From the NCBI RefSeq assembly GCF_046105845.1, contig NZ_CP151004.1: DNA of 64,000 nucleotides. One strand, written 5' to 3'. This document shows positions 9,401-12,400 of this stretch, piece after piece. Origin of the DNA: Escherichia coli (lineage in GTDB: Bacteria; Pseudomonadota; Gammaproteobacteria; Enterobacterales; Enterobacteriaceae). A program made the position numbers. Position 1 is the stretch's first letter. Each line of letters starts with the position of its first letter.

Positions 9401-12400
9401 CTGCCGCCCGATATCAGAGCATGATTGACGCCAGACAGACTGCTGCTGCCAATGCGCAACAGGAACAAGCGGACACCCAGCAGCAACAAATGGACGATCA
9501 GCAGAAACAAATCGACGCGACGCAAAAAACGGTTTCCGCACTTGGCGATGCCCAGACCAACGCACATTATCAAGAGATGGTTAACGCCGGACTGAGAGCA
9601 CAAAATGATGCGAATGCGCGTACTGCAGCAGAACAAAAACAAAAAATAGATACTCTGGCGACTAACCAGGCAACGCAACAGCATATCGATAGTGTGCAGT
9701 ACGGGGAACAAATTCAGCGTCTGGCGCAAGACTCAACACAAACGCATGAACAAATTGACAGCCTGACACAAGACGTAACCCAAACGCATCAGCAGTTAAG
9801 CAACACGCAAAAACGAGTAGCGGATAATAGCCAGCAGATTACTACGCTCAATAACCATTTCAGTTCGCTGAAAAACGAAGTTGAGGACAACCGTAAAGAA
9901 GCCAATGCGGGAACTGCATCAGCCATCGCTATCGCCTCACAACCACAGGTGAAAGCCGGTGACTTTATGATGATGTCAGCGGGAGCGGGAACCTTCAACG
10001 GTGAATCTGCGGTGTCTGTCGGAACATCTTTTAATGCCGGAACGCATACCGTGATTAAAGCCGGTGTCTCTGCGGATACGCAATCTGATTTCGGCGCGGG
10101 TGTCGGCGTGGGATATTCTTTCTAATATTCCAATCCTCAATATAAATAAGAGCAAGGAAGCTTGCCGGGTTTCACCTCTTCATTAATTTGTACATTATTT
10201 AAGGTTAACAATGATGAATAGTTCCATTAAATCGTTTTCCCTGCTGGCGGTTATATTACTGGCTGGCTGTAGTTCACCCACTTCCCGCATCGCAGATTGC
10301 CAGGCGCAGGGCGTCAGCCATGACACCTGTTATCTCGCAGAACAACAGCGTCAGACGGCTATTTTAAGTGCATCCGAGGCGCAGGCATTTAAAAATGCAG
10401 AAGCCGCACAACATGCCCAGGCGGCAAAGAAAGCCATTTATAAAGGATTTGGCATGACCTTTAGAATGAGCAGTAAGAACTTTGCTTATCTCAATGATTC
10501 ATTATGTGCAATTGATGAAGACAATAAAGATGCCACTGTTTATCAGTCAGGTCTTTATAACGTCATTGTTTATCACCACACGGGAAAAGTCGCCTTAATG
10601 AAGGAAGGTCAGTTTGTGGGTTATTTAAAATGAAGGAGCAAAGGAAAATCCCCCTGACGCATATTATGATTATCGGTGCGTTTATTTTTGCCTTCTTGCA
10701 AGTGGTGTTATTAGCCTCCCTGGTTCACGCTGTGAATGTTAACAATGAAATCCAGGAAGGCTTATTTCAATCGGGGCGCATAATGGTAGAAAGTTTGCAG
10801 CATATTCTTTCGGTGCAAACGGGGATTAACTGATTTTCACCCCGCCCGATGATGACAGCAGCCGGAGAGATTTTCGATAATCGGGCAGTCGGCGCTGTCA
10901 TCGCCAGGGCAGGCATTCGCCAGCGCCAACAGCTGGTTGCGCATGGATTGCAGTTCTTCGATATGTCGCTCGATCTCCGCCACTTTCTCCAGGGTGCGAC
11001 GTTTGACGTCGGCACTGTGACGCTGCGGATCGTTAAACAGATTCACCAGCTCGCCGCTCTCTTCCAGGTTAAAGCCCACCTGGCGTGCCTGGCGCAGTAA
11101 GGTCAGTTCGTTGAGATGCTGCTGCGTGTAAGTACGATAACCGTTTTCGCTGCGCATCGGCGGCGTCACCAGCCCCTTCTCTTCATAGAAGCGGATTGCT
11201 TTGCTGGTCAGGCCGGTAATTTTTGCTACATCGCTAATGTTCATCGTTCGCGCAACGCCTCCTGTGCTTTATTAAAGGGTTTCAACAGATAATCCAGCAC
11301 GCTTTTTTTGCCGGTGCGGATATCGACCGTCGCCACCATGCCGGGAAATATCGGAAACTGCTGTTTACTTTTGTTTTCCAGATGGTTGCTGAAAGTGCGA
11401 ATGTACACCCGATAGTAATAAACATCGCGCCGCACTTCATCCTGCACGGTGTCTGGTGATATCACCGCCACTTCTCCCGGCAGGCCGCCGTAGATGGAGT
11501 AATCGTAGGCGGTTATTTTCACCAGCGATTTTTGCCCCGGATGGATAAACGCCACATCGCGCGGGGAGATTTTTGCCTCGATCAGCAGTTGCTCATCCAG
11601 CGGCACGATGGTCATCAGTTTACCACCGGGGGCAATGACCCCGCCAACCGTGGTGACGTCAATGTCCTGAACAATGCCTCGCACCGGCGCGGTAAAGTTG
11701 AGCCTGGTGAGGGAGTCTTCCCGTCCACGGATCACCGAACGCTGGGTTTCCACTTCCGCATTGGCTTTCGCTAACTCTTCGCGCGCCTGAACGTAATATT
11801 GCGTGCGCACGTCGCTAAGTTTGTTTTCCAGTTCATTGGCCTGGCGTTGCAGGCGCAGCACTTCAACGCTGCTCGCCGCCCCCTGTTTTACCAGCGGCTG
11901 GGTCATCGCCAGTTCGCGGTTGACCAGGCTAATCCCCTGCGTCAGCCCGGTGGTGGCTTTGTTCAGCCCATCGCGGCGAGTGTTGTACAACGCCGTTTCC
12001 GACTCGATAAGTTCGGGGAATTTATTCAGTTCGTCAGGGAAGACCAGCGGTTTATTGCTCACTTCCGCCCGCAGCCGCGCCGAGGTTGCCAGCGCCGCGT
12101 ACAGCCGCGACATTGCTTCCTGGACGTCGGATTCCGTTTTGGTGCGGTTAAGCTGCGCCAGCGGCTGGCCCTGTTCAACAATATCGCCAACCTTGACGTC
12201 GAGATGATACAGAATTCCGCCTTCCAGCGACTGCACCACCTGTTCGCGCCCGGAGGGTTCTACCGTGCCGCTGCCGGTGGTGACTTCATCAAGCTGGAAG
12301 TACCACGCCCAGCCGAGAAAACAGAGCAGCATCACAGCGGTAACGCGTACCGCCAGCGCCGAACGCGGCAAGCGGGGTTCAGTCAGGCCACGGTTGTATT

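Follow-up and report, generated by a model that had tools for sequence, protein, structure and literature searches.

Two families of helper proteins have so far been described for trimeric autotransporter adhesins (TAAs): SadB, a lipoprotein of Salmonella and E. coli that enhances the display of SadA, and TpgA, the Acinetobacter partner of the TAA AtaA, encoded downstream of ataA. Among genes of the tpgA type, 91% stand behind a taa, and TpgA binds the TAA transmembrane domain, forming an A3B3 complex with the barrel. A January 2026 preprint, in which ten neighbours of TAA genes were clustered in 1,383 genomes, found only these two families and concluded that further TAA helpers are unlikely; the screen required a YadA head domain. 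Here we describe a TAA locus in a 64,000-nucleotide stretch of Escherichia coli DNA (NCBI RefSeq assembly GCF_046105845.1, contig NZ_CP151004.1; hereafter the window), in which the adhesin gene is followed by genes for a 140-amino-acid (aa) lipoprotein, z0638, and a 67-aa small protein. The anchor is the sole TAA-specific Pfam match of the window's adhesin, the other supra-threshold matches (CD225 and Hfq) being without a scoring domain and no Pfam match to a YadA head domain being listed, and the cassette would therefore have fallen outside the data set of that screen. z0638 is a candidate operon-encoded TAA accessory lipoprotein. The genes themselves were already known and are annotated as hypothetical; what is new is the two-module architecture of the lipoprotein, the rarity of its C-terminal module, the conserved cassette and the linkage to adhesin genes. 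Across Enterobacterales, a rare, unannotated and predicted periplasmic domain tracks with TAAs that are recognised by their anchor only. The reading that we prefer, tentatively and at slightly less than even confidence, is that the lipoprotein and the 67-aa protein form the downstream half of a conserved adhesin cassette, with the lipoprotein acting on the upstream adhesin.

At this locus the adhesin gene, z0639 (published as 'gmrA'), occupies 7216..10125 on the plus strand and likely starts at the ATG at 7234. Its open reading frame (ORF) encodes a signal peptide, its RefSeq name is 'YadA family autotransporter adhesin', and residues 910-969 match Pfam YadA_anchor at 44.5 bits against a cut-off of 22.7. 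An 85-nt spacer (10126..10210, plus strand), carrying an AAGG Shine-Dalgarno-like motif ahead of the ATG, separates it from the lipoprotein gene (10211-10633, plus strand; hypothetical in RefSeq, WP_001339231.1), whose stop overlaps the start of the 67-aa gene (10630-10833, plus strand; hypothetical in RefSeq, WP_000664216.1) in an ATGA at 10630..10633. z0638, z0639 and z0640 were identified by mapping onto the window the primers with which Yang et al. 2018 (PMC5826968) made their deletions and clones; those used to delete z0638 map to 10214-10633, which makes the lipoprotein gene z0638. The initial annotation had described an overlapping lipoprotein (lipobox LLAGC) and single-transmembrane protein, directly downstream of an autotransporter gene and within the same accessory segment, and all of this is borne out by the sequence.

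The lipoprotein has the features of a substrate of Lgt and LspA. Its signal peptide (residues 1-19; 10211..10267, plus strand), called from the translation and from homologues, reads MMNSSIKSFSLLAVILLAG and is followed by CSS (…LLAVILLAG ahead of C20-S-S), so that L-L-A-G precedes Cys20 in a canonical lipobox, LLAGC, with the ending [LVI][ASTVI][GAS]C. The lipobox cysteine is invariant in 21 full-length homologues and at least 90% conserved in a wider alignment that includes members with a signal peptide only. At position +2 the window's protein has Ser and the listed homologues have S, T, V, Q or A, never D, and this sequence predicts sorting to the outer membrane under the Lol avoidance rule. 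Selection was assessed by comparing the window with E. whittamii, with Escherichia sp. E1V33 and with the lineages that carry two divergent small-ORF variants, P0069 and P0070; one of these carriers is labelled E. marmotae by its sources. The ratio of nonsynonymous to synonymous change (dN/dS) of the lipoprotein gene is 0.04-0.10 at dS 0.2-0.57, which indicates purifying selection.

The same comparison gives the small ORF a dN/dS of 0.13-0.18 at dS 0.3-0.58, with replacements mostly in the N-terminal tail. The encoded protein has a basic N terminus (K2, R5, K6), a hydrophobic helix of ~22 residues at about residues 11-33 (mean Kyte-Doolittle 2.65 over 19 residues) and, after the motif L-x-H-A, a polar to amphipathic C-terminal tail of 33 aa. 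Homologues at 30-42% identity occur at two Pseudocitrobacter loci and on a metagenomic enterobacterial contig, and a hidden Markov model (HMM) of the small ORF matches the 64-aa ORF of locus L064 at E 9e-9. In each of these divergent homologues the start codon lies in an ATGA shared with the gene before it. L31, H33 and A34 are invariant in the family, so that L-x-H-A marks the end of the hydrophobic stretch. From sequence, this motif could be a signal-peptidase site, so that the product may be a membrane anchor or, if cleaved, a periplasmic peptide of 33 aa. Both reading frames are genuine genes.

Family searches leave both proteins without a name. Nothing above threshold was found for either in Pfam, NCBIfam, PHROG or PADLOC, and sequence and profile searches of the PDB returned nothing below E 0.1; weak family matches (TraV, Lpp-like alanine zipper, Rz-like spanin) cover the signal peptide and the Ala/Gln-rich helix. 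The initial annotation had likewise recognised no family, and it had named two findings that would speak against its proposal, namely a small ORF that is not conserved and a lipoprotein that belongs to a well-characterised unrelated family. The ORF is conserved and no such family was found, the structure search being uninformative. Homologues of the lipoprotein number 55 in the protein collection and occupy 51 loci in contigs from one genome per species. Their alignment divides the protein into two separable modules, an N-terminal stalk (N-module) and a C-terminal beta-domain (C-module). The N-module (residues 20-70; 10268..10420, plus strand), delimited by alignments and AlphaFold2 secondary structure, contains the lipidation site Cys20, a conserved Cys30...Cys40 pair, an Ala/Gln-rich helix (residues 37-66 in the model) and the ending QHAQAAKK. 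Its family motif is R-M-A-x-C-x-A-Q-G-x-S-x-D-x-C-Y-x-A-E-Q-N-R-Q, followed by a long helix to Q-H-A-Q-A-A-K-K. The C-module (residues 75-140; 10433..10630, plus strand) is modelled by AlphaFold2 as eight short beta-strands, with a predicted local distance difference test score of 81-90.

The two modules occur in several combinations. Lipoproteins of 63-68 aa that consist of the N-module only are found in Buttiauxella, Aeromonas, Pseudomonas, Atlantibacter, Silvania and some alphaproteobacteria. The C-module, of ~65 aa, follows the N-module in some proteins and a plain signal peptide in others, and also occurs as a fusion to a TolA_C-like or a DUF4156 lipoprotein domain. A split version, with the N-module lipoprotein and then the beta-domain encoded by two genes in direct succession, is present at four loci (L030 8004-8559, L050 8001-8604, L053 40-700 and L069 3704-4585), and this pattern of fusion and fission indicates that the N- and C-modules work together. 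In a third variant the N-module carries an unrelated C-terminal domain (L034, L039, L049). The C-module family is real but rare: its profile found only 94 clusters among 1.84 billion representative proteins, and in nearly all small-protein matches the module lies at the C terminus or a few residues from it. His-rich linkers between stalk and beta-domain (e.g. HHHHHHH, HHHHKKHH) were observed in P0130, P0136, P0140, L007 and L050, and several cassettes adjoin cueR-copA; a metal connection is possible, or this may be coincidence.

The beta-domain is the part of the lipoprotein that tracks with adhesin genes. TAA anchors were found with an HMM built from three anchor sequences (window, L003, L005). 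Of the 23 species-representative loci with both modules, 13 have a TAA gene immediately upstream on the same strand, and one further locus has a TAA within 2 kb. The TAA-positive taxa include Escherichia spp., Pseudocitrobacter, two Enterobacter, Phytobacter massiliensis, three Rahnella, Yersinia aleksiciae and Ewingella. A TAA is also found directly upstream at the protein-collection loci L003, L005, L064, L066 and L068; at L064 a C-module with a plain signal peptide, and at L068 a C-module fused to a TolA_C-like domain, stand behind the TAA. P0101 (plain signal peptide), P0137 and P0105 (TolA_C fusion) each follow a TAA. Comparison of the flanks divides the TAA-positive loci into at least nine groups with unrelated flanking genes; with at least nine unrelated chromosomal contexts, the adjacency is therefore not one inherited accident.

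These genes form part of a four-gene cassette, made up of a divergent z0640-like helix-turn-helix (HTH) gene, the TAA, the C-module protein and an ATGA-coupled small ORF; the C-module gene is usually accompanied by the divergent HTH gene and the translationally coupled small ORF. The ATGA (-3) overlap is kept in Escherichia spp., Pseudocitrobacter and L064, and also, with unrelated fourth genes, in Rahnella, L024, L023, L066 and L068. At least four unrelated kinds of fourth gene were found: the window's type, with an N-terminal transmembrane segment (64-68 aa; Escherichia, Pseudocitrobacter, L064), a type with a C-terminal transmembrane segment (68-69 aa; L023, L068), a soluble type (70-81 aa; Rahnella, Serratia, L024) and one other (84 aa; L066). 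Because the fourth gene varies in kind, the pairing of the lipoprotein with the 67-aa protein is a lineage-specific version of a looser cassette.

Published expression data show that z0638 is co-regulated with the adhesin gene in enterohaemorrhagic E. coli (EHEC). RNA-seq in Dulbecco's modified Eagle's medium gave 96.1 reads per kilobase per million for the adhesin gene, 43.5 for z0640 and 20.4 for z0638, and all three fell to about zero in HeLa-attached bacteria (PMC5826968). By quantitative reverse-transcription PCR on HeLa-attached bacteria, z0638, the adhesin gene and z0640 changed by -10.6, -8.5 and -5.2 fold, respectively (PMC5826968). We found no further papers mentioning z0638 besides Yang et al. 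2018. Taken with this co-regulation, the recurrent TAA adjacency supports a functional link of the lipoprotein to the adhesin.

A number of observations weigh against a role in the adhesin cassette and must be set beside this support. No TAA is nearby at 10 of the 26 full-length loci, and stand-alone N-modules are often found where there is no TAA. At thiM/thiD in Enterobacter, Lelliottia, Silvania, Kluyvera and K. aerogenes the lipoprotein is retained whether a TAA is there or not, and the C-terminal domain is swapped or missing. Several TAA-less loci have as neighbour instead an Ala/Gln/Thr-rich protein that bears a signal peptide, ends in a His/Gly-rich tail (…HAFGGHGYGHDNS…GGHSHFH) and has no YadA anchor (L012 8944-10656; L028 8402-9037; L062 3148-3990; L063 440-1357; L070 2712-3860), which is a second recurrent, uncharacterised partner of the beta-domain gene. 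The sequences of the C-module and the TAA anchor do not co-vary (Spearman 0.08, 18 pairs); at Pseudocitrobacter L007, for instance, the C-module is E. coli-like and the anchor Rahnella-like. TAA genes thus appear to have been exchanged in front of a stable downstream gene which, together with the lack of co-variation, argues against a tight, rapidly co-evolving interface; the exchange equally shows that a TAA repeatedly ends up ahead of the C-module gene. A fold search for a link to SadB, TpgA or BamE found none, though the search was uninformative. In the published phenotypes, deletion of z0638 left motility and fliC/motA expression unaffected, and deletion of the whole island did not alter adherence to HeLa or Caco-2 cells, the adhesin itself not being measured in either case (PMC5826968). 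The initial annotation had offered the pair as either an accessory or assembly factor for the adhesin or an unrelated two-gene module. Of these, the link to the adhesin has gained support from the many genera, the at least nine contexts and the co-regulation in EHEC; the more specific idea of an assembly factor has been weakened by the TAA-less loci, the widespread solitary N-module, the missing co-variation and the variable fourth gene.

If the lipoprotein does act on the adhesin, the following mechanism can be proposed. The adhesin gene and z0638 would be co-transcribed, which is plausible because the 85-nt gap holds no terminator-like site on the plus strand; no promoter-like site was found on that strand of the spacer, and no unusual RNA structure (fold z-score -0.27). 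Sec would export the lipoprotein, Cys20 would receive the lipid, and Lol, given Ser instead of Asp at +2, would deliver the protein to the outer membrane's inner leaflet. A Cys30-Cys40 disulfide may staple the base of a helical stalk of ~30 residues, which would hold the 65-aa beta-domain in the periplasm. There the beta-domain would act on the adhesin, most likely on the periplasmic face of the 12-stranded anchor or on the passenger in transit. The effect on the trimer could be to stabilise, assemble or anchor it, as TpgA and SadB do for other TAAs, with an unrelated fold. Termination-reinitiation would produce the 67-aa protein in fixed proportion to the lipoprotein; it may insert in the inner membrane with its N terminus in and its C terminus out, or undergo cleavage behind the conserved V-H-A, and the tail of 33 aa, lying in the periplasm, might work with the lipoprotein. 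Were this correct, it would offer a new handle on the assembly and anchoring of short TAAs, and would assign a role to z0638 and to the unnamed small protein.

Alternatively, the lipoprotein could be an independent periplasmic binder or inhibitor, a small beta-barrel hung from the outer membrane like the lysozyme inhibitors MliC, PliC and ACP, that would protect the envelope or bind a ligand and merely travel with adhesin genes in islands. The TAA-less loci would suit such a protein, but we consider it unlikely: the MliC profile (PF09864) has no match at E up to 1 in the lipoprotein or in any of 30 family members, Foldseek, itself uninformative here, gave nothing significant for MliC, PliC or ACP, and adhesin linkage is not a feature of the lysozyme-inhibitor families. 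Less probable again is that the pair forms a regulatory or feedback module with the divergent HTH protein, tuning adhesin expression or activity. In the radD operon of Fusobacterium, FAD-I is said to tune the expression or activity of the RadD adhesin. That operon, in which an autotransporter adhesin gene is accompanied by genes for a small lipoprotein and two small proteins, provides a precedent as far as the abstract goes, where roles for fad-I are stated to have been investigated (PMC7023056). Such a module would also fit the divergent HTH-like gene usually found in the cassette, the three island genes that go off together upon host-cell contact (PMC5826968), and the fourth gene, which is variable and sometimes cytoplasmic or winged-HTH-like, as suits regulators better than structural partners. 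However, the 67-aa protein exposes only ~10 residues to the cytoplasm and so has no obvious signalling route to a DNA-binding protein, Pfam and NCBIfam searches found no known sensor domain in the lipoprotein, and the beta-domain also stands beside non-TAA secreted proteins, or alone. A membrane-damaging or lysis module, spanin-like or resembling an entericidin-type toxin and antidote, is close to refuted: overlapping genes for a lipoprotein and a bitopic membrane protein and a PHROG 'Rz-like spanin' match (E 0.029) are outweighed by the match spanning just 17 signal-peptide residues, a gene order opposite to Rz/Rz1, a periplasmic part of only ~33 aa in the small protein, the lack of any endolysin, holin or prophage lysis cassette nearby, a family unmatched in 50,697 phage records and in PADLOC, and purifying selection on both genes as chromosomal residents; identity with the spanins Rz/Rz1 was rejected on the same grounds. 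It is hardly credible, finally, that only the lipoprotein is a gene and the 67-aa ORF a chance frame in the spacer before cueR, since the ORF, although short, without a clear Shine-Dalgarno motif and not among the three OI-29 genes named by Yang et al. 2018 (PMC5826968), shows the dN/dS values given above, has homologues that keep its frame, length, ATGA coupling and L-x-H-A, and is annotated by the RefSeq pipeline PGAP.

The identity of the adhesin itself has consequences for earlier work. Yang et al. 2018 described GmrA as a cytoplasmic transcriptional activator of fliA (PMC5826968). Their 'gmrA' deletion and cloning primers map exactly onto the TAA ORF, the cloning primers encoding MKTVNVAL… and …GVGYSF, and by sequence GmrA is the adhesin of the cassette, with a predicted signal peptide and YadA-type outer-membrane anchor. 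The published function and the sequence of an adhesin are hard to reconcile, and the GmrA work calls for re-examination. More plausible than the adhesin as a DNA-binding regulator of the island is the product of z0640 (6505..6867, minus strand), a 120-aa HTH-like protein identified from its ORF, primer mapping and homologues and encoded divergently from the adhesin operon. Its only Pfam match is a weak one to the MqsA antitoxin (E 0.088), and homologues are likewise divergent in Escherichia, Pseudocitrobacter, Rahnella, Ewingella, Yersinia, Serratia, Symbiopectobacterium, L064 and L066. The adhesin gene contains a 369-bp (123-aa) tandem repeat in 4.9 copies at 7531-9352, with 98% identity. Its product has 969 aa in the window against 338 aa in strain 06-00048, and the repeat number therefore varies among strains.

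The cassette lies in a well-defined island. The gene order, fetB-fetA-qmcA-ybbJ, an accessory stretch and then cueR, is that of E. coli strains 06-00048 and 042; in K-12 not a single base separates the cueR stop codon from that of ybbJ, so that positions 6321-10836 of the window represent an accessory insertion between convergent core genes. This ybbJ-cueR island corresponds to O-island 29 (OI-29) of O157:H7 EDL933, which is 2,643 bp and carries z0638, z0639 and z0640 (Yang et al. 2018, PMC5826968); the island is longer in the window because its adhesin gene has 4.9 copies of the 369-bp repeat. The complete stretch from 10100 to 10900 was found in 1372 of 5426 complete E. coli genomes, and the carriers of z0638 and the small ORF, about one quarter of complete E. 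coli genomes, include EHEC O157:H7, enteroaggregative E. coli 042 and many extraintestinal pathogenic strains. At the left edge of the island, 6370-6447 holds an element of the repetitive extragenic palindromic type that matches Rfam naRNA4 (71.9 bits) and has dozens of copies per E. coli genome. At its right edge, 3 nt (10834-10836) lie between the stops of the 67-aa ORF and the convergent cueR, leaving no room for terminators. The stop of a HlyD-family type I secretion gene overlaps the cueR start in an ATGA at 11241-11244, which places cueR at the tail of the siiEA secretion operon. SiiEA, a BapA-related giant adhesin of 6,929 aa (14579-35368, minus strand; annotated in RefSeq), is encoded nearby together with its type I secretion genes (11241-14575) and is frameshifted in strain 042. 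The qmcA-ybbJ-cueR neighbourhood is shared with E. coli by Serratia silvae, Candidatus Symbiopectobacterium and a metagenomic enterobacterium (L022 7297-10620; L030 6749-12369; L064 2159-6513). There the cassette is found upstream of qmcA instead of in the ybbJ-cueR gap, suggesting that its link to the region is old and that rearrangement has occurred.

Against the known systems, the cassette can be compared point by point. The N-module shares a lipobox, a Cys-x9-Cys spacing and an EQ-rich helix with TraV, but the resemblance is confined to the first ~55-65 residues and no conjugation or transfer genes are nearby; with a TIGR02747 match of 19.5-21 bits, far below the cut-off of 44.75, a PDB TraV match at E 0.9 and no conjugative type IV secretion context, identity with TraV was rejected. 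The Fusobacterium radD operon (FAD-I/RapA/RapB) is, on the abstract of PMC7023056, alike in that an autotransporter adhesin is encoded together with a small lipoprotein and with small proteins whose function is unknown; it differs in having a type Va rather than a type Vc adhesin and in coming from a different phylum, and no sequence relation is expected. SadB is closer, being a lipoprotein encoded in a TAA operon, with a lipid anchor, a long polar helix and a C-terminal beta domain as proposed for z0638. However, SadB carries Asp at +2 and is recovered in the inner-membrane fraction, whereas z0638 has Ser; sadB lies upstream of sadA. Nor does z0638 resemble SadB (4C47) or YajI (2JWY), the reference being a nine-heptad coiled coil with a MATH-like beta sandwich of ~100 residues. 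TpgA differs from z0638 in fold, combining a BamE-like alpha-alpha-beta-beta-beta domain with OmpA_C, whereas z0638 is modelled as a helix followed by an all-beta domain, and neither an SmpA/OmlA (BamE-like) nor an OmpA_C domain was matched in it by Pfam or NCBIfam. The A3B3 complex with the TAA barrel is proven for TpgA. The likeness to TpgA lies in gene position and predicted compartment: both genes stand directly downstream of a taa, both products would be periplasmic, and ~60% of the lipoprotein family follow a TAA, compared with the 91% of tpgA-like genes. It may be, though we regard the full proposal as doubtful, that the beta-domain family represents a third, hitherto unrecognised class of dedicated partners, for short TAAs recognised by their anchor only. 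Suspended from the outer membrane by a lipidated stalk with a disulfide staple, and accompanied in Escherichia by a small peptide that is either secreted or set in the inner membrane, the domain would bind the adhesin on its periplasmic side, and stable display of the adhesin would depend on it.

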